A stretch of 64,000 nt of DNA from Candidatus Marinacidobacterium sp. (GTDB taxonomy: Bacteria; Acidobacteriota; Vicinamibacteria; Marinacidobacterales; Marinacidobacteraceae): the NCBI GenBank assembly GCA_965204755.1, contig OZ242011.1, forward strand, positions 2,164,975-2,228,974, read 5' to 3'. The notes under the pieces were generated by a model, which was not told where the DNA came from, ran no database searches, and saw nothing but the letters and a program-made list of their open reading frames with translations. Positions 12,222 to 50,036 of this stretch are shown here, piece by piece. Each line of letters starts with the position of its first letter. Position 1 is the first letter of the stretch. The position numbers and the translations under genes were made by a program.

Positions 12222-13438
12222 TTCCGGGGCAGGACCCGCAGGAACCGGCGCTTCCCCACGCGCAGGACCGCCCCCCCGTCGGGGAGGACGACCGGCTCCT
12301 TCCAGGAGGTGATGGTTCGCCCGTCGAGTGACACCGCGTTGTTGTCCACCAGGCGGCGTCCTTCGGAGCGGCTCTTCGCGAACCCGGACCCGGTGAGCAG
12401 GTCGAGCACGCCCGCGGGCGAGTCCACGCGCAGCGCCGGCAGGTCTTCCGGCGCCTCCCGCCGGACGAAGACCGCCTCGAACCGGTCGCGCGCTTCGGCC
12501 GCCTCGGCCCCGGAGTGGAAGCCGGAGACGATCTCGACGGCGAGCGCCTGCTTCGCCTCGCGGGGATGGACTTCGCCGGACTCGATCCCGGCGGCGAGCG
12601 CGCGGACCTCCGCCGGCGTGCGGTCGGTCAGCAACTCCGCGTAGCGCAGCATCACCTCGTCGCTGACGGACATCAACTTCCCGAACATCTCGCCGGGGGG
12701 ATCGGTGACCCCCACCGCGTTGCCCAGCGTCTTGGACATCTTCTCCACGCCGTTCAGCCCTTCCAGGAGCGGCATGGTCAGCGCGACCTGGGGGGTCAGC
12801 CCGTATTCGCGCATGATGTGGCGGCCGACCAGCAGGTTGAACAACTGGTCGGCGCCGCCGAGTTCGAAGTCGGCCTTCGTCCATACCGAGTCGTAGGCCT
12901 GCGCCAGCGGATAGAGGAACTCGTGGATCGAGATCGGCCGGTTGCCGCGGAACCGGCGCTCGAAGTCGTCCCGCTCCAGCATCCGGGCGACGGTGTAGCG
13001 GGAAGCGAGCCGGATCAGCCCCTCGCTGCCGAGTTCGGAGAGCCACGAACTGTTGAACGCCACCTTGGTCCGCTCCGGGTCGAGGATCCGGAACACCTGC
13101 TCCCGGTAGGTGCGGGCGTTCTCCTCGATCTGCTCGCGGGTGAGTTGGGGGCGCGTCCGGGAGCGGCCGCTGGGGTCGCCGATGAGACCGGTGAAGTCGC
13201 CGATCACGAACCAGACCTCGTGCCCGAGATCCTGGAAGTGCTTCATCTTCCGCATGACCACGGTGTGGCCGAGATGCAGGTCGGGCGCGGAGGGGTCGAA
13301 ACCCACCTTCACCCGCAGCGGTTCGCCGGACTCGGCGGACCGGCGCACCCGTCCGGCGAGTTCGCCGGCGGGCTCGATGCGGTCGGCGCCCTTCTCCAGG
13401 TAGGCGATCTGCTCCTCGACGGGAGCGGAGCCGTCCAT
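12218..13438 (-). CDS. tyrS: Tyrosine-tRNA ligase
   Basis: HIGH motif HLGH, KMSKS motif KMSKT, C-terminal S4-like domain. ATG 13438 shares one nt with the purN stop (TGATG). Confidence 0.9.
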   Translation of the reverse strand: MDGSAPVEEQIAYLEKGADRIEPAGELAGRVRRSAESGEPLRVKVGFDPSAPDLHLGHTVVMRKMKHFQDLGHEVWFVIGDFTGLIGDPSGRSRTRPQLTREQIEENARTYREQVFRILDPERTKVAFNSSWLSELGSEGLIRLASRYTVARMLERDDFERRFRGNRPISIHEFLYPLAQAYDSVWTKADFELGGADQLFNLLVGRHIMREYGLTPQVALTMPLLEGLNGVEKMSKTLGNAVGVTDPPGEMFGKLMSVSDEVMLRYAELLTDRTPAEVRALAAGIESGEVHPREAKQALAVEIVSGFHSGAEAAEARDRFEAVFVRREAPEDLPALRVDSPAGVLDLLTGSGFAKSRSEGRRLVDNNAVSLDGRTITSWKEPVVLPDGGAVLRVGKRRFLRVLPRK

Positions 13439-14109
13439 CAGTCCGGGGCGCGCCGGGTCACGCGCCGCCCCTCGATCCAATACCCGCCCCGGCGCAGCCG
13501 CCGCACCGCTTCCGGCAGGAGGCGGTGTTCCACCTCCCGCACCCGGTCGGCCAGGGTGTCCGGCGTGTCGTCGTCCTCGACCGGGACGCTGCCCTGGAGC
13601 AGGATCGGCCCGTGGTCGAGGTATTCGTCCACCAGGTGGACGGTGGCGCCGCTGACCTTGACGCCCCGGTCGAGGGCTTGGTGGTGCGCCCTCAGGCCGG
13701 GGAACGCCGGGAGGAGCGACGGGTGGATGTTGAGCACCCGGTCGGGGAAGGCGCGGGTCACCACCGGGGAGACGATGCGCATGAACCCGGCGAGGCAGAC
13801 CAGGTCCACCCGGTGGCGGCGGAGCGCCTCCACCACCGCCCGGTCGAAGGATTCCCGGTCGGGGAACGCCCGGTGGGGGATCACCTCGGTGGGCACGCCG
13901 GCGTCCTTCGCCCGCTGCACCCCCGGCGCTTTCGCCCGGTTGCTGATGACGACGACCGGCTCGGCGTCGAGCGAGCCCTCCCGCGCCGCTTCGAGCAGCC
14001 GCATCATGTTCGTGCCCTGGCCGGAGATCAGGATGCCCAGCCGGGGGCCGGGAACCGGGAGCGCTTCGTCCCGGTGCGGGTGCTCGTGCGGCGGGAGTTC
14101 GTAACTCAC
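13438..14109 (-). CDS. purN: Phosphoribosylglycinamide formyltransferase
   Basis: LISGQGTN, NIHPSLLP, GATVHLVDE. The GTG start overlaps the purM stop (GTGA). Confidence 0.9.
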   Translation of the reverse strand: MSYELPPHEHPHRDEALPVPGPRLGILISGQGTNMMRLLEAAREGSLDAEPVVVISNRAKAPGVQRAKDAGVPTEVIPHRAFPDRESFDRAVVEALRRHRVDLVCLAGFMRIVSPVVTRAFPDRVLNIHPSLLPAFPGLRAHHQALDRGVKVSGATVHLVDEYLDHGPILLQGSVPVEDDDTPDTLADRVREVEHRLLPEAVRRLRRGGYWIEGRRVTRRAPD

Positions 14110-15281
14110 CGGAGGGCTCCCCGGAAGCGCGCGCCCGGCGGGCCGGCGCTCGCGACGACTTCGCCGAGCGGCCAGGCTCCCGGCAGTCGTCGGAGCGCCT
14201 CGTCCCGTTCGGCGGCGGGGACGACGACGACCAGGCCCACGCCGCAGTTGAAAGCGCGCAGCATCTCGTCGGCGGCGATCCCCCCGGCTTCGGCGAGCAG
14301 GCGGAAGAGCGGCGGGAGGCGCCAGGAGTCGAGGTCCACTTCCGCCGAACAGCCGTCGGGCAGCACCCGCGGCAGGTTGCCGGGGAGGCCGCCGCCGGTG
14401 ATGTGGGCCAGGGCGGAGACGAGGCTGTCCCGCAGGAGCGGCCGGACTTCCGGCAGGTAGCAGCGGTGGCGGGCGAGGAGCGCGTCGGCGGCGGACGCGT
14501 CCATCCCGGGCAGCCGATCGGAGACGGTGAGCCCCAGCCGGTCTTCGAGGACGGCGCGGGCCAGGGAGTAGCCGTTCGTGTGGAGCCCGTTCGAGGGAAG
14601 CGCGAGCAGCGCGTCCCCGGGTCGGACGCGGCTTCCGTCCACGATCCGGTCGCGCTCGACGGCGCCGACGATCGTCCCGGCGACCTCGTAGTCCCCGGCG
14701 GGGTAGAAGCCGGGCATCTCCGCGGTCTCGCCGCCGAGGAGCGCGGCGCCGAACTCCCGGCAGGCCTCGGCCATCCCGCGCACCAGCCCTTCCACGGCGT
14801 CCTCGTCGAGCGACCCCATGGCGATGTAGTCGAGGAAGAAGAGCGGCTCCGCGCCCTGCACCAGGATGTCGTTCACGCAGTGGGACACGAGGTCGTAGCC
14901 GGGCACTTCGTGCCGCCCGGCCTGCCGCGCCAGCCGCAGTTTCGTCCCCACGCCGTCGGTGGAGGCGACGAGCACCGGATCCCGGAACCGGGCCGCGTCG
15001 AACCGGAAGAGCCCGCCGAAGTGCCCGATCTCCCCCAGCACCGCCGCGCCGTGCGTCCCCTGAACCAGCGGCCGAATCCGGTCGAGCGCCCGGTCGGCGG
15101 CGGCGATGTTCACGCCGGCCGCCCGGTAGTCGAGGGCAGGCGCGGAGGGCTCGGCGGACACGGTGCGCGGATTATCGCCGGCACCGGTTCCCACACCGTC
15201 CCGCCCAGCGGGGTCGGCCCGGAGGCTTACGGCCGACCGCGACTCTGGCGAACCGCTCGCCGTTCCCTTTTCGGGGCCCAA
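14106..15281 (-). CDS. purM: Phosphoribosylformylglycinamidine cyclo-ligase (AIR synthetase)
   Basis: YRAAGVNI, VASTDGVGTKL, ITGGG. The track start is TTG 15281. GTG 15161 would give the usual ~351 aa, so the start is uncertain. Confidence 0.9.
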   Translation of the reverse strand: MGPEKGTASGSPESRSAVSLRADPAGRDGVGTGAGDNPRTVSAEPSAPALDYRAAGVNIAAADRALDRIRPLVQGTHGAAVLGEIGHFGGLFRFDAARFRDPVLVASTDGVGTKLRLARQAGRHEVPGYDLVSHCVNDILVQGAEPLFFLDYIAMGSLDEDAVEGLVRGMAEACREFGAALLGGETAEMPGFYPAGDYEVAGTIVGAVERDRIVDGSRVRPGDALLALPSNGLHTNGYSLARAVLEDRLGLTVSDRLPGMDASAADALLARHRCYLPEVRPLLRDSLVSALAHITGGGLPGNLPRVLPDGCSAEVDLDSWRLPPLFRLLAEAGGIAADEMLRAFNCGVGLVVVVPAAERDEALRRLPGAWPLGEVVASAGPPGARFRGALR

Positions 15282-15313
15282 CAGGTACTATCTTCTAGCG
15301 TCTCACCGACCGG

Positions 15314-16621
15314 ATGGCTCGTCTTCCCGGCTTCCCTAGGCCGCCGACCCCCGCCGTTCCCGTCCGCGGCCCCGGCCGGCTTGGACGACCGCTCCGCGCC
15401 CCTCGGTCCAGAGGAGAACAGTTGGCCGGCATCTTTTCCGGGCCGACTTGCGAATGGCTCCGTGCGACCGATGTGCGGTCTCGGAAGGCGCTCGGGCAAT
15501 ACATGACGCCCCGGGCGCTGCGCGAGCGGCTACTCGACCAGTGCGACCTCTGGCCGGGCATTCGCGTGCTCGATCCGGGTGTAGGCACGGGGGAGTTCCT
15601 CGCCTCCGTGCTCGAGCGGCAACCGGATGCCCGCACTTCCGGCTGGGATGTAGACACGGACATCCTCTCAGTCGCTCGTAAGGTTGTTCCCGACGCCCAC
15701 CTCGAACGGCGATCCGCCCTCGATTCCTGGGACGGAACACCATTCGACTTGGTCGTAGGGAACCCTCCGTACTTTCAGTTTCGTGCGGACACCCAAACCA
15801 GGCGTCGTTTTCGTAAAGTGATCTCCGGGCGAGTCAACATCTTCTCCCTGTTCTTCCAGATCGGCATCGAAGTTCTGCAACCCGGGGGTCAACTCGCTTT
15901 CGTCGTCCCGCCGTCAATGAACAGCGGGGCGTACTTCGATCGCCTGCGCATGTTCCTCGCACATCGGGCAGATGTGGAATTCCTGAAAGTCCACACCGCA
16001 CATGACTTGTTCGATGGCGCCCACACAGCGGTGCAACTCATCGTCCTACGAGTCGGGTCCCAATCTTCAACGAATCGCCATGTTGCGATCTTTCGCGACG
16101 AACGGAGCGGCTTTAGGCGGACGGTCTTCTGCGAAGATGCGGACGCGTTACGCCGACGCCAGACGAAGGGCAGGACGCTCTTCGAACTCGGTTACAAGGC
16201 TGCTACGGGCACCATCGTGTGGAACCAGCACCGCCACGCTCTGCGACATGAGTCTAACGGCGCTACGGTCCGTCTTATCTGGTCGCACAACATCGAAAAC
16301 GAACTCAACTTCAACGCTCATCGGCGTAAGCCTCCGTTCATCGAGACTTCGAAGAGGATTCATGGCCCGGCCATCGTCGTGAATCGCATTACCGGTGCAG
16401 TTGGTCGGGCAGAACTCCGCTGTGCGCTCGTACGCGACGAGGTTTTCGTCGCGGAGAACCATGTCAATGTAATCCGTCCGCATGGTCTCTTTGAACCCCT
16501 GCTGGAATGGGAGCATCTGTTGGAATCTCTCCGCCACCCCGATGTTGCCGACCACGTGCGACTGATAACGGGTAATACTCAGATTTCTGCTACCGAATTG
16601 ACTCATATGCTTCGCGTCTGA
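15314..16621 (+). CDS. Gamma-class (Eco57I/TaqI-like) N6-adenine DNA methyltransferase
   Basis: GQYMTPRAL, AdoMet motif LDPGVGTGEF, catalytic VVGNPPY, followed by a ~250-aa variable (target recognition) region. GC falls from about 15650 onwards. Confidence 0.85.
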   Translation: MARLPGFPRPPTPAVPVRGPGRLGRPLRAPRSRGEQLAGIFSGPTCEWLRATDVRSRKALGQYMTPRALRERLLDQCDLWPGIRVLDPGVGTGEFLASVLERQPDARTSGWDVDTDILSVARKVVPDAHLERRSALDSWDGTPFDLVVGNPPYFQFRADTQTRRRFRKVISGRVNIFSLFFQIGIEVLQPGGQLAFVVPPSMNSGAYFDRLRMFLAHRADVEFLKVHTAHDLFDGAHTAVQLIVLRVGSQSSTNRHVAIFRDERSGFRRTVFCEDADALRRRQTKGRTLFELGYKAATGTIVWNQHRHALRHESNGATVRLIWSHNIENELNFNAHRRKPPFIETSKRIHGPAIVVNRITGAVGRAELRCALVRDEVFVAENHVNVIRPHGLFEPLLEWEHLLESLRHPDVADHVRLITGNTQISATELTHMLRV

Positions 16622-23746: not shown

Positions 23747-23792
23747 CAGCCCGTGGAGAAAGTCCGGGGAGCGCCCGTCAGCGCGGAGCGCC
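23747..23792 (+). repeat. 46-nt intergenic element, copy A (upstream of purB)
   Basis: CAGCCCGTGGAGAAAGTCCGGGGAGCGCCCGTCAGCGCGGAGCGCC. It shares an identical 19-mer, GTGGAGAAAGTCCGGGGAG, and most flanking bases with 48959-49004. Confidence 0.85.
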
Positions 23793-23809: not shown

Positions 23810-25120
23810 ATGCTCACCGACCGGTATGTCCGCCCCGAGATGGGGGCGCTCTGGACCGACGAGGCGCTGTTCTCCTCCTGGATGGAGGTCGAAGTGGCCG
23901 CCGCCGAGGCGATGGCGGCGGAGGGGATCGTCCCGGAAACCGCCGCCGCCCGGATTCGGGAACGGGCCGGCTTCGACCTCGAGCGCATCCGGGAGATCGA
24001 GGCGGTCGTCCACCACGATGTCGTGGCCTTCACCCAGGCGATGGCGGAGCGGGTCGGCGAAGAGGGCCGCTACCTCCACTACGGGCTCACCAGTTCCGAT
24101 GTGGTGGACACCGCGCTCGCGGTCCGGCTGACCCGGGCGGCGGACCTGGTGCTCCGGCGGGTGGAGGGCCTGCGCGAAGTCCTCCTCCGCCGCGCCGAAG
24201 AGCACCGGCGGACGGTGATGGTGGGGCGCACCCACGGCGTCCACGCCGAGCCCATGACCTTCGGCATGAAGATGCTCCTGTGGTGGGCGGAGATGGGCCG
24301 GAACCGGCGGCGGCTGCGCGCGGCCCGGAGCGCGGCGGCGGTCGGGAAACTGAGCGGCGCGGTGGGCACCTTCGCCCACCTGCCGCCGTCGGTGGAAGCC
24401 CGGGTGTGCGCGGCGCTGGGGCTGGCGCCGGCGCCGATCTCGACCCAGGTCGTCCAGCGCGACCGCCACGCCGAACTCGCCGCCGCGCTCGCCATCACCG
24501 CCGGCACGCTGGAGAAGATCGCCACCGAAGTCCGCAACCTCCAGCGCACCGAGATCCGGGAGGTCGAGGAGCCCTTCGGGCGGGGCCAGAAGGGCTCTTC
24601 GGCGATGCCCCACAAGCGGAACCCGGTGGGCTGCGAGCAGGTCTGCGGCCTCGCCCGGGTGATCCGCGCCAATGTGGTTCCGGCGATCGAGAACATCGCG
24701 CTGTGGAACGAGCGGGACATCTCGCATTCGTCGGCGGAGCGGATGACGATCCCGCAGAGTTTCCTGCTGCTCGACCACATCCTGCTGCGGACGACCGCGA
24801 TCGTAGACGGGCTGCTGGTGTATCCCGAAGCGATGCGCGCGAACCTGGAGCGCATGAACGGGCTGGTGTTCAGCGGCGGCGCGCTGCTCGAACTGGCCGC
24901 CCGGGGGGTGTCCCGGGAGGAGGCCTACCGGATGGTGCAGTCCTGCGCGATGCGGGTCTGGGAGCGGGGGACGCCGCTGCGGGAGGAGATGGGGCGGCGC
25001 GCGGGGATCACCGCGGTGCTCGGCGAGGCGGAACTGGACGCGGTCTTCGACCTCGACACCCATCTCCGCCGGGTGGACGAGGTGTACGAGCGCGTCCTCG
25101 GGGAGGAGGAGTCCCCGTGA
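23810..25120 (+). CDS. purB: Adenylosuccinate lyase
   Basis: YGLTSSDVVDTA and the signature GSSAMPHKRNP. 436 aa. Confidence 0.95.
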   Translation: MLTDRYVRPEMGALWTDEALFSSWMEVEVAAAEAMAAEGIVPETAAARIRERAGFDLERIREIEAVVHHDVVAFTQAMAERVGEEGRYLHYGLTSSDVVDTALAVRLTRAADLVLRRVEGLREVLLRRAEEHRRTVMVGRTHGVHAEPMTFGMKMLLWWAEMGRNRRRLRAARSAAAVGKLSGAVGTFAHLPPSVEARVCAALGLAPAPISTQVVQRDRHAELAAALAITAGTLEKIATEVRNLQRTEIREVEEPFGRGQKGSSAMPHKRNPVGCEQVCGLARVIRANVVPAIENIALWNERDISHSSAERMTIPQSFLLLDHILLRTTAIVDGLLVYPEAMRANLERMNGLVFSGGALLELAARGVSREEAYRMVQSCAMRVWERGTPLREEMGRRAGITAVLGEAELDAVFDLDTHLRRVDEVYERVLGEEESP

Positions 25121-25386
25121 AGTACCGGGTCCGGGTGGAAGTGCGGCTCCGGCCCTCGATCTACGACCCGCAGGGCGAAGCGATCCGCCGGGCGCTGGCC
25201 GCCGGCGGCGCCTCCGGGGTGACTTCGGTGCGGCAGGGGAAACTCTTCGAACTCGAACTCGAGGCCGACTCCGCCGCCGCCGCCGAAGAGCAGGCCGCCG
25301 ACCTCGCCCGCCGGGTCCTCGCCAACCCGGTGCTCGAGGACTGCGCGGTTTCGTCGCCTACGATGCATCAGGTCCCCACCGCCTGA
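25117..25386 (+). CDS. purS: Phosphoribosylformylglycinamidine synthase subunit PurS
   Basis: GTG 25117 overlaps the purB stop (GTGA). VKYRVRVEVRLRPSIYDPQGEAIRRAL...ANPVLEDC is PurS-like. 89 aa. Confidence 0.85.
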   Translation: MKYRVRVEVRLRPSIYDPQGEAIRRALAAGGASGVTSVRQGKLFELELEADSAAAAEEQAADLARRVLANPVLEDCAVSSPTMHQVPTA

Positions 25387-25467
25387 CCGGTCGATTCTCC
25401 CCGGTGATCGCCGTTCCTGCCAAGAGGTTCCTTCATGCCTCGAAGGACGAGGTTGGCGGGGGGACTC
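25359..25467 (+). repeat. Structured ~110-nt element, copy 1 (spans the purS stop codon)
   Basis: Shares three conserved blocks with copy 2. Terminal arms GTCCCCACCGCC / GGCGGGGGGAC can pair (11 bp plus one bulge). Two internal hairpins are present. Confidence 0.85.
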
Positions 25468-25544
25468 GCGGAGCGATTCCCGCCGCCGGCCCCCGGGCAG
25501 CGGCCCGCGGGGAACCGACGGGCGGGGGCCCTTCCGCGGGCGGG

Positions 25545-25661
25545 TACGATGCGGCAGGTCCCCACCGCCTGACCGGTTTGGATTTTTGCCGGTGATCGCC
25601 GTTCCTGCAGTGAGGTTTTCTTCCTACTTGGTCTCCAAGGACGAGGTTGGCGGGGGGACTC
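25545..25661 (+). repeat. Structured ~110-nt element, copy 2 (65 nt upstream of purQ)
   Basis: Same blocks as copy 1: 28/30, 20/20 and 25/25 identical. The differences fall in the hairpin loops and in one stem that changes on both sides. Confidence 0.85.
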
Positions 25662-25725
25662 CTTCGCGCTTCGCCGGCCGGCGCCGCTCTCGCCGGGCGC
25701 CGCGCCGCCGGCTCGCCGGCAACCG

Positions 25726-26436
25726 ATGAAGCCGCGCCGGATCGCGGTCCCGGTGTTCCCGGGCACCAACTGCGAGGAGGATGTGCTCCACGCGCTGCGG
25801 ACCGTGACGCCCCACCGGGCGGAACTCGTCTGGCACCGGGAGGGCTCGCTCGCCGGGTTCGACGCCGCGGTCGTGCCCGGCGGTTTCGCCCACGGCGACT
25901 ACCTGCGCGCCGGCGGGCTGGCCCGGTTCTCCCCGGTGACGGCCGCGCTCTCGGAGATGGCCGGGGCCGGGAGGCCGGTGCTGGGCATCTGCAACGGGTT
26001 CCAGATCCTCCAGGAGGCGGGGCTCCTGCCGGGAGCGATGCTGAAGAACCGCTCGCTCACCTATGTCTGCCGGGAGGTGTTCGTCCGGGTCGAGACGAGG
26101 GAGACCCCGCTGACCGCCGCCCTCGAAGTCGGCGAAGTGCTGCGGCTGCCGATCGGGCACGCCGAAGGGAACTTCCACCTGGACGACCGCGGGATCGCCG
26201 AACTCGAGGCCGAAGGACAAGTGGTGTTCCGCTACTGCCGGTCGGACGGGGCGCCCGACGAAGCGGCGGCGGAAGTGAATCCCAACGGCTCCCGGAACGC
26301 CGTCGCCGGCGTCCGGAACCGGGCCGGGAATGTGGCGGCGCTGATGCCCCACCCGGACCGGGCCTACGAAGCGGCGCTCGGCGGCGAGGACGGCGTCCGG
26401 GTGTTCGCCGGCCTGACCCGGTGGCTGGAGTCCTGA
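25726..26436 (+). CDS. purQ: Phosphoribosylformylglycinamidine synthase, glutamine amidotransferase subunit
   Basis: [12 protein letters not shown], nucleophile elbow [15 protein letters not shown]. Confidence 0.95.
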
Positions 26437-28802
26437 TGGCGCCGGCGGCGGGCCGAGCCGGGCCACCGGCGGAAGGATCTGCCGGGCCACCGGCGAAAGG
26501 TCCAGCCGGGCCACCGGCGAACGGCGCTGTCGAGCGGCCCGTCGGGCCGGGCCAGGGGTTGGCCGATGCGCTCGCGGCGGGTCTCACCGAGTCCGATTTC
26601 CGGGAGATCGAGGCCCGCCTCGGGCGCGCGCCGAACGCCGCCGAACTCGGCATGTTCTCCGCCATGTGGTCGGAGCACTGCTCCTACCGGTCCTCCCGAA
26701 GGCATTTGGCGCGCTTCCCCACCGAGTCGCCCCGGGTCCTCGAAGGGCCGGGCGAGAACGCCGGCGCCGTCGAGATCGGCGACGGGCTGGCCGCGGTGTT
26801 CAAGGTGGAGTCGCACAACCATCCCACCTTCATCGAGCCGTACCAGGGCGCGGCCACCGGCGTCGGCGGCATCCTGCGGGACATCTTCACCATGGGCGCC
26901 CGCCCGGTGGCGCTGATGAACTCGCTGCGCTTCGGCCCGCTCGCCGACCGGAACAACCGCCGGCTGTTCGCCGGGGCGGTCGCCGGCATCGCCAACTACG
27001 GGAACAGCATGGGCATCCCCACCGTGGGAGGGGAAGTGGGGTTCGAGGACTGCTACTCGCTGAACCCGCTGGTGAACGCCTTCGCGCTCGGTCTCGCGCC
27101 GGCGGACCGGTTGTTCCGCGCCCGGGCGGAGTCGCCGGGGCATCCGGTGTACTGCGTCGGCGCGAAGACCGGCCGCGACGGCATCCAGGGCGCGGCGATG
27201 GCTTCCGCGGCGTTCGACGACGAAGCGGAGGCCAAGCGCCCCACGGTGCAGGTCGGCGACCCGTTCCTGGAGAAACTCCTGTTGGAGGCCTGCCTCGAAC
27301 TCATGCGGGGCGACGCGCTGGTCGCCGTCCAGGACATGGGCGCCGCCGGGCTGACCTGTTCCACCGCCGAAGTCGCCGCGCGGGGCGGGTGCGGCGTCCG
27401 GGTGGACCTCGACCGGGCGCCGCAGCGCGAAGCGGGGATGTCCGCCTACGAAATCCTCCTCTCGGAGTCGCAGGAGCGGATGCTGTTGGTGGTGCGGCGG
27501 GGGCGGGAGGGCGAGGTGGAGCGGGTCTTCGCCAAGTGGGACCTGGACGCGGCGGCGCTCGGCGAGATCACCGACGACGGACTGCTCCGGGTGACCCACC
27601 GGGGCCAGCCGGCGGCGCTCGCGCCCTGCCGGGCGCTGACCGAGGACGCTCCGCTGGAAGACCGGCCGATGGCCGCGCCGTCTTCGTGGCCCCCGGCGGA
27701 GGTGACCGCCGCCGACCTCGACGAGCCGCGCGACTGGAACGAGGCGGCCCTGCGGCTGGCGGCTTCCCCCGGGCTCGCCAGCCGGCGGTGGGTGTACGAG
27801 CAGTACGACCACATGGTGCGGAGCGACACCGTGGCCCGCCCCGGCGCGGACGCCGGCGTGATCCGCATCAAGGGCTCGCGGCTGGGTGTAGCCATGTCGC
27901 TCGACGGCAACGGCCGCTACGCCGGCGCCGACCCCCGCCGGGGCGGGGCGCTGGCGGTGTCCGAGGCCTGCCGCAACCTGGCGGCGGTGGGGGCGGAACC
28001 CGTGGGGGCGACCAACTGCCTCAACTTCGGCAACCCGGAGAAGCCGGAGGTGATGTGGCAGTTCTCCGAGGCCATAGACGGCATGGGCGAGGCGCTGCGG
28101 GCGCTCGGCGCGCCCATCACCGGCGGCAATGTCAGTTTCTACAACGAGACCGACGACGCCGGAATCCTGCCGACCCCGGTCGTGGGCGTGGTGGGGGTGC
28201 TGCCCGATGTCCGGGCGTTGGTGCGCCAGCACTTCCGGGGACCGGGCGACGCGGCGTACCTGGCCGGAGGAGCGTCCGCCGGCGCTTCTTCCGGCGGCGC
28301 GTCGCCGACCGTCGCGCTCGGCGCGAGCGAGTACCTGAAGGTCATCCACGGCCGGACGGACGGTCGCCCCCCGGCCCCGGCGCTCGAGGCGGAGGCGCGC
28401 CTGGGCGCGTTCCTGCGCGCGGCCGCCGCCGCGGGGATCACCCGCTCGGCCAAGGACCTCTCCGAGGGCGGCCTGTTCCAGGCGGCGGTCGAGTCGGTCT
28501 TCGCCCCCGACGGTGCCCGCTGCGGCGCGTCCCTCTCGCTGGAAACCCCCGACCGGATCGAGGGCCCCCTCTTCGGCGAAGCCCCGGCCCGCGCGCTCGT
28601 CACGGCGGGGGTCGAGGACACGGCGGCCCTGGAGTCTCTGGCCGAGGAGCACGGAACCCCGCTGACCCGCCTCGGGACCACCGGGGGCGATGCGCTAAAC
28701 GTCCGGGCGAACGGCGCCGCCGTGATCCATCTGCCCACGCCCGACCTCTGGGACGCCTTCGGCATGGGCCTGGAACGCGAGATGTCGGGGACGGCGCCGT
28801 GA
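26436..28802 (+). CDS. purL: Phosphoribosylformylglycinamidine synthase subunit PurL
   Basis: ATG 26436 shares one nt with the purQ stop (TGATG). [33 protein letters not shown]. The N-terminus carries an AGPPAxGx x3 insertion. Confidence 0.95.
26457..26528 (+). repeat. In-frame 24-nt tandem repeat x3 at the 5' end of purL
   Basis: GCCGGGCCACCGGCGGAAGGATCT / GCCGGGCCACCGGCGAAAGGTCCA / GCCGGGCCACCGGCGAACGGCGCT, encoding [24 protein letters not shown]. Confidence 0.9.
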
Positions 28803-28885
28803 CGGGCGCGGGTCGCCGCGCCGCCGGGGGTGTCAGGTTTTGGCGTTTCCCTGCGCGAAATTCCCCTCCGGTCTCCGAAGCCTCC

Positions 28886-30049
28886 ATGGACCCGGCCGTT
28901 GTCCGCACCGAACGTGCGTCGTCTTCCCCGCGTCGTCGCCCATCCTCCGCGCGACTCGATCGGCTGGCGGCTTCGGCGGCGTCAACGGCGCGTTCGACCG
29001 CGGTAGGCGCACTCCCGCCGCGCCGAGTTCATCCCGGTGCGGCAGCCGCGCCGGTCCTGCTTCCCGGAAGGCGGACGCGTCCGTCGGTTCGCCGCTCCGG
29101 CGGCGCCTCGCCTCGCCGCGCGCGGCCGTGGGTGCTGCCCGAGGACTGCCGGGATGCCCTCCCCGAACTTGCGGAGAACAGCGTCGCTCTGGTCTTGACC
29201 GATCCTCCCTACTTCACGGACCGAATGGGCGCGGAATGGGACCTGCGCGCCCTCCGGTCGCGGGTGAAGAACGGGGTCGTCGGCGGCCTGCCGGTCGGTA
29301 TGAAATTCGATCCGAAACAGGGCCGCGACCTCTACGAGTTCCTGCGGCCGATCGCGGAGGAGTGGCGGCGGGTCCTCAAGCCGGGCGGTTTCGCCCTCTG
29401 CTTCTCCCATCCCCGGCTCGCCCACCGCACGACCTCGGCGATAGAGGACGCCGGTTTCGAAATTCGGGACCTGCTCGCCTGGAAGCACGAGGGGCAGGCC
29501 AAGGCGTTCACGCAAGAGCACTTCGTTCGCCGCCGCGACCTCTCCGACCGAGAGAAGGCGCGCATCATCCGCTCGCTCGGCGGCCGCAAGACCCCGCAAC
29601 TCAAGCCGCAGATAGAGATGATCGTCCTGGCGCAGGCGCCGCGCGCAGGGACTTTCGTGGACAACTGGATGGAGTACCGCGCCGGGCTGATCGATGTCTC
29701 CCGCCCGCTCCTCGATCCCGGACGCTTCCCCGGAACCCTGATCCCCTGCCCCAAACCCAAGGAGCGGTTCGGGCACATGACGGCCAAACCCGTCGCCTTG
29801 CTCCGCCACCTCATCCGCATCTTCTCCGCCCCGGGAACGAACTCGGTCGTCCTCGACCCCTTCGCCGGCTCCGGTTCGACCGGAGTGGCCGCCCGCCTGG
29901 AGAAACGCGGCTTCCTCGGCTTCGAGATCGACGCGGCCATGGCGAAGACCGCGACAGAGCGGCTTGCGAAGGAAGCCGACGCGCGTCCACCGCGGCTTCG
30001 GGCTACGAGATCGCGAACTCCGCGGATGAGGAGCCGTAGGCGTCCGTGA
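28886..30049 (+). CDS. Beta-class DNA methyltransferase (N4/N6 methylase domain, DPPY type, probably N6-adenine)
   Basis: Motif IV LVLTDPPYF precedes motif I LDPFAGSGSTGVAA, the circular permutation typical of the beta class. ATG 28886 adds an Arg-rich 80-aa leader, and GTG 29132 is an alternative start. GC is about 63-65%. Confidence 0.8.
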   Translation: MDPAVVRTERASSSPRRRPSSARLDRLAASAASTARSTAVGALPPRRVHPGAAAAPVLLPGRRTRPSVRRSGGASPRRARPWVLPEDCRDALPELAENSVALVLTDPPYFTDRMGAEWDLRALRSRVKNGVVGGLPVGMKFDPKQGRDLYEFLRPIAEEWRRVLKPGGFALCFSHPRLAHRTTSAIEDAGFEIRDLLAWKHEGQAKAFTQEHFVRRRDLSDREKARIIRSLGGRKTPQLKPQIEMIVLAQAPRAGTFVDNWMEYRAGLIDVSRPLLDPGRFPGTLIPCPKPKERFGHMTAKPVALLRHLIRIFSAPGTNSVVLDPFAGSGSTGVAARLEKRGFLGFEIDAAMAKTATERLAKEADARPPRLRATRSRTPRMRSRRRP

Positions 30050-30393
30050 TGTTCCAACTGCCTCCGGCTCCGGAATCCTGCTTGGCGGGAGATGTTGTCG
30101 GCGCGGCGCTTCGTCGCACGGAAGCGATGTGGAAGGCGGCAGGTTTCGGTTTCCGGCCGTACGACCCTCCACAGGCCAAGTACGTCCTCGACACCTTCTT
30201 CACCGAATCCCACGGCGGGCTCGAACTGCTCGACTTCGTCGTCGAGTCCGCGGAAGAGCCGTTCTCGGCGATCCGGATGCGCGTCCGGTACACGGACGAC
30301 GAGGACGGAACCGGTATGACCCGGTGGTTCGTGTGGCGGAAGGCCGACGAGGATTCGAGCGCCTGGGCCTTCCAGGAAGACGAAGGCTGGTGA
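30049..30393 (+). CDS. Hypothetical acidic 114-115-aa protein coupled to the methyltransferase
   Basis: ATG 30049 shares one nt with the methyltransferase stop (TGATG), and GTG 30046 is also possible. Trp/Asp/Glu-rich. No family recognised. It ends 4 nt before purF. Confidence 0.45.
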   Translation: MFQLPPAPESCLAGDVVGAALRRTEAMWKAAGFGFRPYDPPQAKYVLDTFFTESHGGLELLDFVVESAEEPFSAIRMRVRYTDDEDGTGMTRWFVWRKADEDSSAWAFQEDEGW

Positions 30394-30397
30394 CGCC

Positions 30398-31834
30398 GTG
30401 AAGACGGGTGGTTCGCGCCCCGACGCGCCGGATCGGTTCCATGACGAGTGCGGGGTGGTCGGGGTCTGGAATCATCCGGAGGCGGCGCGGCTCGCGTACC
30501 TGGGGCTCTACGCGTTGCAGCACCGGGGGCAGGAAGCGGCGGGGATCGTGGCGGTGTCGCCCTCCGGGCAGTCGCTGAACGAGGTGAACGGTCCCGGACA
30601 TGTCGCGGATGTGTTCGACCGGAAGTCGCTCGACGCGCTCCCGGGGCGGGCGGCCATCGGGCACACCCGCTACTCGACCTCCGGCGAGAACAGCACCGAG
30701 AACATCCAGCCGATCCAGATCGAGTGCAAGTACGGCCAGATCGCGGTCTGCCACAACGGCAACCTGGTCAACGCCCACATCCTCCGGCGGGAACTCGTGG
30801 ACCGGGGCTCCATCTTCCGGACGAGTTCGGACACGGAAGTCCTGGTGCACCTGTTCGCCAAGTCCGGGCAGGCGACGGAACTCGATGCCGTCATCGAGGC
30901 GGTGCGGCAGGCGGAAGGAGCGTTCTCCCTCCTGTTCCTGACCACGAACGCGCTCTATGCGGTGCGCGATCCCCGCGGTTTCCGGCCGCTGCTGCTCGGC
31001 CGGGTGGGCGACGGGCATGTCGTGTGCTCCGAGACCTGCGCGCTCGACCTGCTCGACGCCGAATTCGTCCGCGACATCGAAGCCGGGGAGATGCTGCGGA
31101 TCGACGACGACGGCGTCCATTCCCTCTCCCTCTTCGACGCCAAGCGGATTTCGCAGTGCATCTTCGAGCACATCTACTTCGCGCGCCCGGACAGCCGGGT
31201 GTTCGGGCGCGATGTGTACCGCACGCGCATCGCCCTCGGACACAGTCTGGCGAAGCGCACCGGAGTGGACGCCGATGTCGTGGTGCCGGTTCCCGACTCG
31301 GGCCTGATCGCGGCGATCGGGTATTCGCAGGCGACCGGCATCCCGATGGAGTTCGGGTTCATCCGCAACCACTATGTCGGGCGGACCTTCATCGAACCGC
31401 GCCAGTCCATCCGCAACTTCGGGGTGCGCGTGAAACTCAACCCGGTGCCGGCGGTGCTGAACGGCCGCCGGGTGATCCTCATCGACGACTCCATCGTGCG
31501 CGGAACCACCAGCCGCAAACTGGTGCAGATGGCGCGGAACGCCGGCGCCGCCGAAGTCCACTTCCGGGTCTCGTCGCCGCCGACTACCGGCCCCTGCCAC
31601 TACGGCATAGATACGCCGCTGGAGTCGGAGTTGATCGCCGCCTCCAAGTCCGTCGAGGAGATCCGCGAGTACCTGAACGCGGACAGTCTCGCCTACCTCC
31701 CGCTCGAAGCGCTGGAGGAGTCCGTCGAGGACGAGCCCGACCGCTACTGCATGGCGTGTTTCTCCGGCGACTACCCGCTACCCGTCCCCGAACTCGAACG
31801 CGCCCGAAGCCTCTTCGCGAAGAACCGGACCTGA
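30398..31834 (+). CDS. purF: Amidophosphoribosyltransferase
   Basis: Propeptide followed by the catalytic CGVVGV. PRPP loop VILIDDSIVRGTTS. C-terminal Cys ligands CHYGID...CMACFSG (4Fe-4S type). Confidence 0.95.
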   Translation: MKTGGSRPDAPDRFHDECGVVGVWNHPEAARLAYLGLYALQHRGQEAAGIVAVSPSGQSLNEVNGPGHVADVFDRKSLDALPGRAAIGHTRYSTSGENSTENIQPIQIECKYGQIAVCHNGNLVNAHILRRELVDRGSIFRTSSDTEVLVHLFAKSGQATELDAVIEAVRQAEGAFSLLFLTTNALYAVRDPRGFRPLLLGRVGDGHVVCSETCALDLLDAEFVRDIEAGEMLRIDDDGVHSLSLFDAKRISQCIFEHIYFARPDSRVFGRDVYRTRIALGHSLAKRTGVDADVVVPVPDSGLIAAIGYSQATGIPMEFGFIRNHYVGRTFIEPRQSIRNFGVRVKLNPVPAVLNGRRVILIDDSIVRGTTSRKLVQMARNAGAAEVHFRVSSPPTTGPCHYGIDTPLESELIAASKSVEEIREYLNADSLAYLPLEALEESVEDEPDRYCMACFSGDYPLPVPELERARSLFAKNRT

Positions 31835-47792: not shown

Positions 47793-47883
47793 GACGCTGC
47801 CGTCCGGGGAGCGCCGACGGCCGGGGAGCGCCGCCGGTCGGGGGCCGCCGCGCGGGCGCCCCCGGCCGAGGGCGGGTCTGTCG

Positions 47884-48958: not shown

Positions 48959-49004
48959 CAGCCTGTGGAGAAAGTCCGGGGAGGGCCTGTCGGCGCGAAG
49001 CGCC
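48959..49004 (+). repeat. 46-nt intergenic element, copy B (upstream of the VWA gene)
   Basis: CAGCCTGTGGAGAAAGTCCGGGGAGGGCCTGTCGGCGCGAAGCGCC. It contains the perfect hairpin GTCGGCGC-GAA-GCGCCGAC. Confidence 0.85.
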
Positions 49005-49079: not shown

Positions 49080-50036
49080 ATGACGGCCGGCTCCGCCCGC
49101 TCCCGGGCGCCCCGCGGCCGGCTCGCCGGCCGGCTGGTTCTCGCCGGCGCCGCGGCGCTCGTCTCTTGGTCCGGGGCGTCGGCGGCGGGGCAGGAGCGAC
49201 CGGGAAACGATCCGTTCCGGCTCCGGCTCGCCGTTGAGGCGGTGAACCTCGGCGTCGCCGTGACGGACTCCCGCGGACGGTTCGTCTCCGGGCTCACGGA
49301 GGAGAACTTCGTCGTTCGCGAGGACGGCGTGCCGCAGGAGATCAGTTTCTTCGCCAGCGAGGTCGCCCCCCTCGACATCCTGATCCTGCTCGACGCCTCG
49401 CTCAGCATGAGGGCCAGTCTCGACTATGTGAAGGAAGCGGCCTCGATCTTCGTGGATCGGCTCTGGGAAGGCGACCGGGCGATGATCGGCGAGTTCAACG
49501 ACCGCATCCGGTTCGGCGGGGAGTTCACCGACGACCGGAGGCGGCTCACTTCGAGCATCCTGGCGCTGAACCCGCTGGGCGCCACCGCGCTCTACGACGC
49601 CTCGATCCTGGCCCTCGAGCGGCTTCACCGGGCCGACGCGGAGCGGAAGGCGCTGCTCGTCTTCACCGACGGCGACGACTCCCGGATCACCGGTTTCGGC
49701 AGCGAGGCGAGTTCCCGCGACGCCATCGAAGCCGCGCGTCTCACCGAGGCGGCGATCTACGCCATCGGCTTCGAGGGGAACGGGGCGCGCGTCAACAAGC
49801 GGTTCCTGAACCGGTTGACCGAAGAGACGGGCGGCCAGGCGCTCTTCCCGGAACGCACCGGCGACCTCATCGGCAGTTTCGCCCGGATCGAGGAAGACCT
49901 CCACTCCCAGTACCGGCTCGCCTACATCCCGCGGATCGAGCAACGCGACGGGGAGTGGCGGTCCATCGAGGTAACGGTCACCGGCCGGCGCGGCCTCACC
50001 GCCCGCGCGCGCCGCGGCTACTACGCCGATCCGTAG
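49080..50036 (+). CDS. VWA-domain protein (TIGR03436 Acidobacterial VWFA-related type)
   Basis: Signal peptide and MIDAS motif LLDASLSM. N- and C-terminal beta segments as in the TIGR03436 family. Confidence 0.8.
   Translation: MTAGSARSRAPRGRLAGRLVLAGAAALVSWSGASAAGQERPGNDPFRLRLAVEAVNLGVAVTDSRGRFVSGLTEENFVVREDGVPQEISFFASEVAPLDILILLDASLSMRASLDYVKEAASIFVDRLWEGDRAMIGEFNDRIRFGGEFTDDRRRLTSSILALNPLGATALYDASILALERLHRADAERKALLVFTDGDDSRITGFGSEASSRDAIEAARLTEAAIYAIGFEGNGARVNKRFLNRLTEETGGQALFPERTGDLIGSFARIEEDLHSQYRLAYIPRIEQRDGEWRSIEVTVTGRRGLTARARRGYYADP

Follow-up and report, generated by a model that had tools for sequence, protein, structure and literature searches.

The stretch of DNA analysed here (64,000 nucleotides (nt) of contig OZ242011.1 from Candidatus Marinacidobacterium sp., positions 2,164,975 to 2,228,974; hereafter the window) carries a purB-purS-purQ-purL operon in which the purB stop codon overlaps the GTG start of purS, and purS and purQ stand 339 nt apart (Table 1). 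A preliminary description of the window had singled out this spacer as unusually long; the gene coordinates confirm its length, and where both genes could be located in more distant relatives (59 cases), they are mostly separated by ~-13 to +26 nt. The spacer holds two copies of a ~110-nt element, the first of which begins within purS. Its best-supported reading is that of a lineage-specific, selected, sense-strand intercistronic module that replaced an ancestral purS/purQ overlap.

The two copies share near-identical blocks (as had been noticed at the outset), three of which, 33, 20 and 29 nt in length, are 94%, 100% and 97% identical between copies and recur at spacings of 186, 188 and 194 nt. 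Each of them was found exactly twice in the window, where 0.00-0.03 occurrences would be expected by chance. The element unit as a whole spans 109-119 nt, with four blocks totalling ~80-90 nt. Both copies are oriented as the pur operon (sense strand), and their GC content (60-63%) contrasts with that of the window (71%) and of the linkers (86-87%). The homology of PurS to its relatives ends after ...VLEDCAVS, and the last ~9 codons together with the TGA belong to copy 1, which replaces a variable tail; translation (...SPTMHQVPTA*) bears out the earlier claim that copy 1 encodes the end and the stop of PurS. Copy 2 holds a mini-open reading frame (ORF; ATG CGG CAG GTC CCC ACC GCC TGA). No Shine-Dalgarno-like (GGAGG-like) sequence was seen ahead of purQ, and no terminator-like site (intrinsic terminator) was predicted in 24800-26000.

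Table 1. Features of the purB-purL region and predicted helices of the element (positions are counted from the first letter of the window).
Feature	Position	Strand	Description and basis
purB	23810-25120	+	Adenylosuccinate lyase; ORF; Pfam Lyase_1 and ADSL_C on the identical gene in L081
purS	25117-25386 (TGA 25384-25386)	+	89 amino acids (aa); translation; Pfam PurS; alignment with relatives
Element copy 1	25359-25467	+	109 nt, 63% GC; block A 25359-25391, block B 25401-25420, GAGGTT 25424-25429, block D 25439-25467
Hypervariable site	25423	+	CCA[A/C/T]GAGG, just 5' of a Shine-Dalgarno-like GAGG; different base in each of three strain groups
Candidate relay ORF-1	25404-25595	+	63 codons; GTG in block B, 17 nt past the purS stop; TGA overlaps the next GTG (GTGA 25592-25595)
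Linker 1	25468-25544	+	77 nt, 87% GC; missing from single-copy strains
Element copy 2	25545-25661	+	117 nt, 60% GC; blocks as in copy 1, loops differ
Candidate relay ORF-2	25592-25729	+	45 codons; GTG in block B of copy 2; TGA overlaps the purQ ATG (ATGA 25726-25729)
Linker 2	25662-25725	+	64 nt, 86% GC; changes at about the neutral rate; 21-nt in-frame deletion in allele 4
purQ	25726-26436	+	FGAM synthase glutaminase subunit, 236 aa; homology
purL	26436-28802	+	FGAM synthase II
P1 (predicted)			12 base pairs (bp), GGUCCCC.CCGCC with GGCGGGGGGACU; purS stop region to element 3' end; RNAalifold
P1 5' arm (predicted)	25371-25383	+	GGUCCCCACCGCC; in the last purS codons; pairs with 25455-25466; all pairs invariant
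P2 (predicted)			ACCGG/CCGGU; stem invariant, loop variable, in every copy
P3 (predicted)			Block B with the purine-rich 5' half of block D
P4 (predicted)			GAGG/CCUC

The loci of relatives were recovered by PurQ homology search and contig look-ups. In four of them (L088, L090, L092 and L093, with PurQ identities of 83, 83, 79 and 73%, respectively) purS and purQ share a TGATG overlap or are separated by 12 nt, the element is absent and PurS measures 86-100 aa. All the strains with a PurQ identity of at least 93% have an 89-aa PurS that ends in the element. The element is a ~110-nt insert into the 3' end of purS, acquired in the ancestor of one uncultured species, and it removed the ancestral stop-start overlap.

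Strain-level variation was assessed within a 90%-identity PurQ cluster of 43 members (the 14 compared are 93-99.6% identical to the window PurQ), by using contigs from many metagenome samples that were reached through look-ups on six of these PurQ sequences and the window's own. Eight spacer alleles were found (counting that of the window), each with one or two copies of the element and all keeping the 89-aa PurS. Alleles 1 (the window), 2, 5 and 8 have spacers of 339-342 nt, composed of copy 1, linker 1, copy 2 and linker 2. Alleles 3 (145-146 nt) and 4 (124-125 nt, with the in-frame deletion) consist of copy 1 and linker 2, the copy-1 loops running straight into the linker. Alleles 6 and 7 (366-367 nt) combine copy 1 with a 107-nt linker 1', a third element type (c2', carried by L186-L195, L197 and L198, with loops unlike those of copy 2) and linker 2.

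A two-copy ancestor whose identical 3' blocks recombined would be expected to leave just such a single-copy layout. We reason that the second copy, which most strains carry, is probably an old local duplication (period ~190 nt): since divergence in loops and linkers is much greater between the copies than between the strain clades, copy 2 (if a duplicate) should be older than the clade split, and the one-copy state would hence be derived. In the single-copy clade, copy 2 was probably lost again by such recombination. Linker 1' is ~76% identical to linker 1 over the first 58 nt and unalignable thereafter, and the linker 1'/c2' segment is 24% diverged (plus large indels) in a strain pair that differs by 5.5% at 4-fold degenerate sites (a 4-5x ratio), which suggests either an old allele or an import from an unsampled lineage that also had two copies.

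Between the window and the single-copy clade, copy 1 shows 1-2 differences in 109 nt, where ~15-17 would be expected if it were neutral; in this comparison divergence reaches 14-16% at the 4-fold degenerate sites of purB, purS and purQ, 5.6% over the coding sites as a whole and 14% in linker 2 (86% identity). Across strains copy 1 is 98-100% identical, and its substitution rate lies ~10x below neutral. The blocks were set only by the identity of copies 1 and 2 in the window and then tested on the independent variation within each element type: 7 of 91 columns vary in the blocks and 12 of 29 elsewhere (Fisher p = 8e-5). Between copy 2 (c2) and c2', only 6 of the 91 columns in the blocks have changed, compared with 9 of the 27 outside them. 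Hence, the blocks of both copies are under strong purifying selection, and the duplication is neither recent nor neutral. The preliminary description would have taken a lack of homologues together with a lack of covariation as the mark of a recent neutral duplication, a criterion that proves too strict, as both hold here and the duplication is still not of this kind. Where the blocks encode part of the candidate ORFs, just one site varies (25423); it occupies the second position of its codon (AAG/ACG/ATG), and no synonymous variants were seen there, which speaks against a constraint on protein. The constraint acts on nucleotides.

Two further observations concern this variable site. A T at 25423 makes an ATG, in an otherwise invariant element. 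On the minus strand of copy 1, antisense to purS, there is a sigma-70-like promoter match (TTGGCA-18 nt-GAGAAT, 25394-25423), which was rejected as a candidate site: its -35 hexamer takes in the hypervariable position, and it is not conserved in copy 2.

RNAalifold, run on eight distinct copies, produced a consensus of four helices (P1-P4). The pairing of the element ends, previously put at 11 bp, is recovered as the 12-bp P1, and the ACCGG...CCGGU hairpin with its constant stem and differing loop (P2) is present in every copy. The second hairpin that had been interpreted as compensatory variation exists in both forms (CCUUC..GAAGG and CUUGG..CCAAG), but they occupy different alignment registers and no aligned pair changes on both sides. 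Almost all the variation lies in unpaired columns, with the conserved blocks predicted to pair mutually and the variable stretches to form loops (a pattern that is partly circular, since RNAalifold favours conserved columns). The plus strand folds better than the minus strand (-45.8 and -46.1 versus -41.6 and -38.3 kcal/mol, a difference of 4-8 kcal/mol), and c2' reaches a fold z-score of -2.8. In each of the three element types the invariant AAGGACGAGG has a potential partner in the variable pyrimidine stretch, but the register differs; this is what lies behind the hairpin that had been read as compensatory. We consider the predicted fold plausible.

The element belongs to no known family. 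A search of the whole window against Rfam 15 at gathering score gave no match (including ZTP, purine, PRPP/ykkC, glnA, Acido-1 and Acido-Lenti-1), and at E<=10 over 25000-25900 it gave just two spurious matches, both outside the element, in line with the earlier failure to match it to a known riboswitch class. ARAGORN found no tRNA or transfer-messenger RNA over 25000-26000, and nothing relevant was found in the literature on purS/purQ intergenic elements.

Further copies were sought at several scales, the 64-kb window being the part of the ~3.98-Mb source genome that was covered. Neither nhmmer over 2 Mb of sequence, which took in the window and the relatives' junctions, nor a search of 0.87 Mb of loci from sister species and Vicinamibacteria yielded one, and an unfiltered covariance-model search of the window recovered only the two copies (next best match, 11 bits). 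Exact scans of genome contigs yielded 0 matches for block D and 8 chance matches for block A (with no second block near), although in this collection the best match to the neighbouring gene is 43% identical, there is no close relative of the source and its nulls say little. Block B had 5 chance matches in metagenome contigs (inside coding DNA), and blocks A and D had 0 matches in viral contigs. A six-frame concatenated translation of both copies found no match among 5.8 billion protein clusters, which is a weak negative since low-complexity words may have filled the candidate list.

Overlapping reading frames connect purS to purQ across the spacer. The window has the two candidate relay ORFs listed in Table 1, and in the one-copy alleles a single frame of 43 or 36 codons bridges the whole distance between the GTG and the ATGA at purQ. 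The chain of stop/start overlaps is intact in six of the eight alleles, and length changes occur in frame (linker 2 loses 21 nt in allele 4, the diverged linker 1'/c2' gains 27 nt net, and the copies differ by +6 nt). The encoded peptides are not conserved outside the nucleotide blocks (their tails vary), and they have neither Pfam matches nor homologues in a six-frame translated search of the same protein clusters. A small protein gene was rejected on these grounds and because the substitution pattern is wrong for a protein.

We tentatively propose, and rate at somewhat below an even chance, that the element acts on purQ/purL translation through coupling by unmasking and a relay of short ORFs. 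Acting in cis within the mRNA of the whole purB-purS-purQ-purL operon, it would form a structured module between cistrons: it provides the stop codon of purS, and its helices P1-P3 would hide the GUG start 17 nt 3' of this stop. A ribosome completing purS would open the helices, and the short non-conserved frames, by means of their GUGA/AUGA overlaps, would hand ribosomes on to a purQ start that has no Shine-Dalgarno sequence of its own. The net outcome would be a translational coupling of purQ/purL to purS that is restored, and probably attenuated. Here, we infer that transcription passes through the element, that its RNA folds and that the relay operates.

A number of observations weigh against this proposal. 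Alleles 2 and 5 have indels (+T and +A) that make a TAA and break the chain, unless translation restarts at an in-frame TTG 1 nt later, and the argument from frame preservation is marginal (roughly p = 0.05 by our own count). The relay frames are suggestive only, since open frames are common in DNA of 70-87% GC, and no obvious Shine-Dalgarno sequence was seen at their GTG starts. As regards the fold, where the preliminary description had called for a check of covariation, 0 of 31 predicted pairs change on both sides and shuffled alignments score identically; 29 of the 31 never vary, and are therefore silent for or against it. The fold z-scores of copies 1 and 2 reach only -1.2 to -1.8. The invariant sequence of the long GC stems would be explained no less well by protein recognition than by a simple helix, and copy 2 is dispensable in one clade. 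A more far-reaching version, which we hold to be improbable, is that of a young species-specific regulatory RNA, in which a captured insert would have become an essential sequence-specific switch that sets purQ/purL against purS translation, either sensing a protein or metabolite or relaying ribosomes, with tandem copy number as a strain-level tuning knob.

The element may instead, as the preliminary description also considered, be a non-autonomous mobile repeat, resembling miniature inverted-repeat transposable elements (MITEs) or repetitive extragenic palindromic (REP) sequences, that was put into the purS tail once or twice, has other copies elsewhere and affects purQ incidentally or by later exaptation. 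We deem this account unlikely, though with appreciable weight, and such a repeat is possibly what the element originated from: it was cleanly inserted in one lineage whose relatives lack it, its copy number is polymorphic, an imperfect 11-12-bp inverted repeat lies near its ends, its GC content is below that of the window and linkers, and the genome appears to have at least one more short intergenic repeat family. A dead insertion should, however, drift neutrally, and copy 1 evolves ~10x more slowly; moreover, no further copy turned up in the 64-kb window, the 0.87 Mb of relatives' loci or the translated search, and the exact-block scans of genome, metagenome and viral contigs gave either nothing or chance matches. 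The inverted repeat is also not terminal (12 conserved nt stand 5' of it), both copies have the same orientation and the junctions show no clear target-site duplication, but only loose TTCG/CGCC-like similarities. An intercistronic, REP-like stabiliser or processing element is rather improbable in our view. In this scheme a very stable hairpin directly behind purS would halt 3' exonucleases or guide cleavage, such that the purB-purS message would outlast purQ-purL and PurS would be in excess; the FGAR-amidotransferase complex reportedly needs two copies of PurS per PurQ and PurL. While the sense-strand position within the operon and the predicted -46 to -48 kcal/mol per copy (beginning at the purS stop) agree with it, this stability is unexceptional for the base composition, a barrier hairpin should tolerate compensated changes and yet the block sequence is invariant, and the in-frame indels and GTGA/ATGA overlaps are left unexplained.

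The preliminary description had proposed a duplicated cis-regulatory RNA. What stands of this is a genuine sense-strand duplicate in the pur operon with blocks under purifying selection, and the strength of this selection makes a cis-acting role plausible; a riboswitch or tandem aptamer is not supported, given the lack of an Rfam match, of any homologue outside the species and of covariation, and the absence of copy 2 from a whole strain clade. Accordingly low is the probability that we assign to a tandem ligand-sensing riboswitch, or to a leader recognised by a dedicated regulatory protein, either of which would govern purQ-purL by purine status. The strongly conserved cores with variable loops, the tandem arrangement, the purine-gene context and the presence, in every one of the three element types, of Shine-Dalgarno-like AAGGA/GAGGU motifs able to pair with CCUC-like pyrimidine stretches would suit it, and against these stand the restriction to one species (the closest relatives, with PurQ identities of 73-85%, lack the element), a position inside the operon after purB-purS and not in a 5' leader, and no terminator-like expression platform. 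A site acting at the DNA level (an operator array, a recombinase site or another protein-binding site) appears just as improbable: strictly invariant blocks of 20-33 nt, an inverted repeat and an ACCGGT palindrome are what it would call for, but G·U pairs make the fold strand-specific (with the plus strand better), both copies are oriented with the operon, the reading-frame relations go unexplained and no adjacent recombinase or regulator gene was noted in the strain contigs. We give least credence to neutral debris, either a decayed local duplicate of the purS-end/purQ-start junction or a small protein gene. Open frames are present, and a 12-13-nt match (GATCGCCGTTCC) links block B (at 25401-25417) to purQ codons 4-9 in the sister species L088 and L090, collinear with a preceding CCTGAC (p ~0.01-0.07), which hints at a possible origin of the element from an old junction duplication; debris would nonetheless not evolve ~10x below the neutral rate. 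As a candidate, the decayed junction duplicate was rejected because, when the window was scanned in six frames, a hidden Markov model of the PurQ N-terminus did not hit the element, and nhmmer finds no link to the relatives' junctions. A simple tandem duplication that included the purQ start was rejected as well: the period fits, but the similarity of linker 1 to linker 2 plus the purQ 5' end is not significant (p = 0.18-0.99).

Beyond the spacer, several features of the neighbourhood deserve mention. At the start of purL, a 24-nt tandem repeat (~3 copies, 26446-26521) codes for 8-aa repeats of the AGPPA(E/K/N)G type in the PurL N-terminus; these repeats vary by strain, are missing in L094, and go along with called PurL lengths of 753-782 aa in the strain contigs (the window purL ORF has 788 aa), thus the purQ-purL junction is also length-polymorphic. 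A 46-nt repeat (CAGCCYGTGGAGAAAGTCCGGGGAGSGCCYGTCRGCGCGRAGCGCC, 89% identical) is found at 23747-23792 and 48959-49004, with a partial copy at 47802-47832; it sits just 5' of purB and again 5' of a VWA-domain gene (49080-50036), and may represent a second short intergenic repeat family or a common promoter/leader. Directly after purL, L094, L097 and L100 have two N6/N4 DNA methyltransferase genes around a BglII-like endonuclease gene (13070-15930); the corresponding region of the window (~28840-31600) includes an ORF (28840-30036) with no Pfam match at E<=0.01, and the post-purL region may therefore differ between these strains and the window. In L093 (the 73% relative, the Vicinamibacteria metagenome-assembled genome OY729431.1) only a 77-aa ADSL_C fragment was called upstream of purS (2511-2744), beside a tricorn protease gene, which may mean that purB is truncated or has moved elsewhere in this relative.

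If the relay or regulatory reading were true, the locus would provide a dated natural case of a tightly coupled operon junction that survived an insertion and then came to depend on the insert; the strong selection on the insert, the rapid turnover of loops and linkers and the copy-number variation among strains point to such dependence. The origin of a cis-regulatory RNA would then be directly testable. If the element were a dispersed repeat, it would be an ordinary one, exapted or tolerated. Under either reading it is not a new widespread riboswitch class, and its reach is one uncultured lineage.

In kind, the element resembles intercistronic repeats and coupling devices. With the Rfam tandem riboswitches of purine metabolism (purine RF00167, ZTP RF01750, PRPP/ykkC and glnA RF01739, as well as tandem glycine) it shares the purine-gene context, two adjacent related units that are predicted to be structured and the combination of conserved cores with variable loops; it departs from them in having no covariance-model match, no covariation, a location outside the 5' leader, a distribution limited to one species, no terminator or clear sequestering platform and a dispensable second unit. 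Like MITEs, it is ~110 nt long, has an inverted repeat near its ends and a GC content below that of its host, and varies in presence between close lineages; unlike them, its inverted repeat is non-terminal, no target-site duplication or other copies were seen and the copy is under strong purifying selection.

Intercistronic repeats comprise REP sequences (e.g., the malE-malF REP of Escherichia coli) and the bacterial interspersed mosaic elements (BIMEs), BOX, ERIC and Correia; what defines such families is their tens to hundreds of dispersed copies per genome, and REPs measure 20-40 nt. The element is likewise predicted to form a stable sense-strand hairpin between cistrons, is modular (with blocks and variable parts), has a strain-dependent copy number and could affect the relative expression of the flanking genes. 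It differs in that only the purS-purQ copies were found in the sequence searched, in its size and build (109-119 nt and four blocks, instead of an imperfect palindrome of 20-40 nt), and in overlapping a coding end and being far more conserved than its neutral flanks. Translational coupling is known from the ATGA/TGATG overlaps of operons and from the unmasking of structure (as in phage MS2, coat-replicase/lysis). The points of likeness are the stop of the upstream frame that overlaps the next start (GTGA, ATGA), a downstream start (purQ) with no Shine-Dalgarno sequence of its own, and a main helix with its 5' arm inside the final codons of purS, such that a terminating ribosome would open it. 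What would set the present case (known from sequence alone) apart is that coupling would pass through one or two short ORFs across 125-367 nt, and would be carried by a recently inserted, sequence-invariant module in place of a direct overlap.

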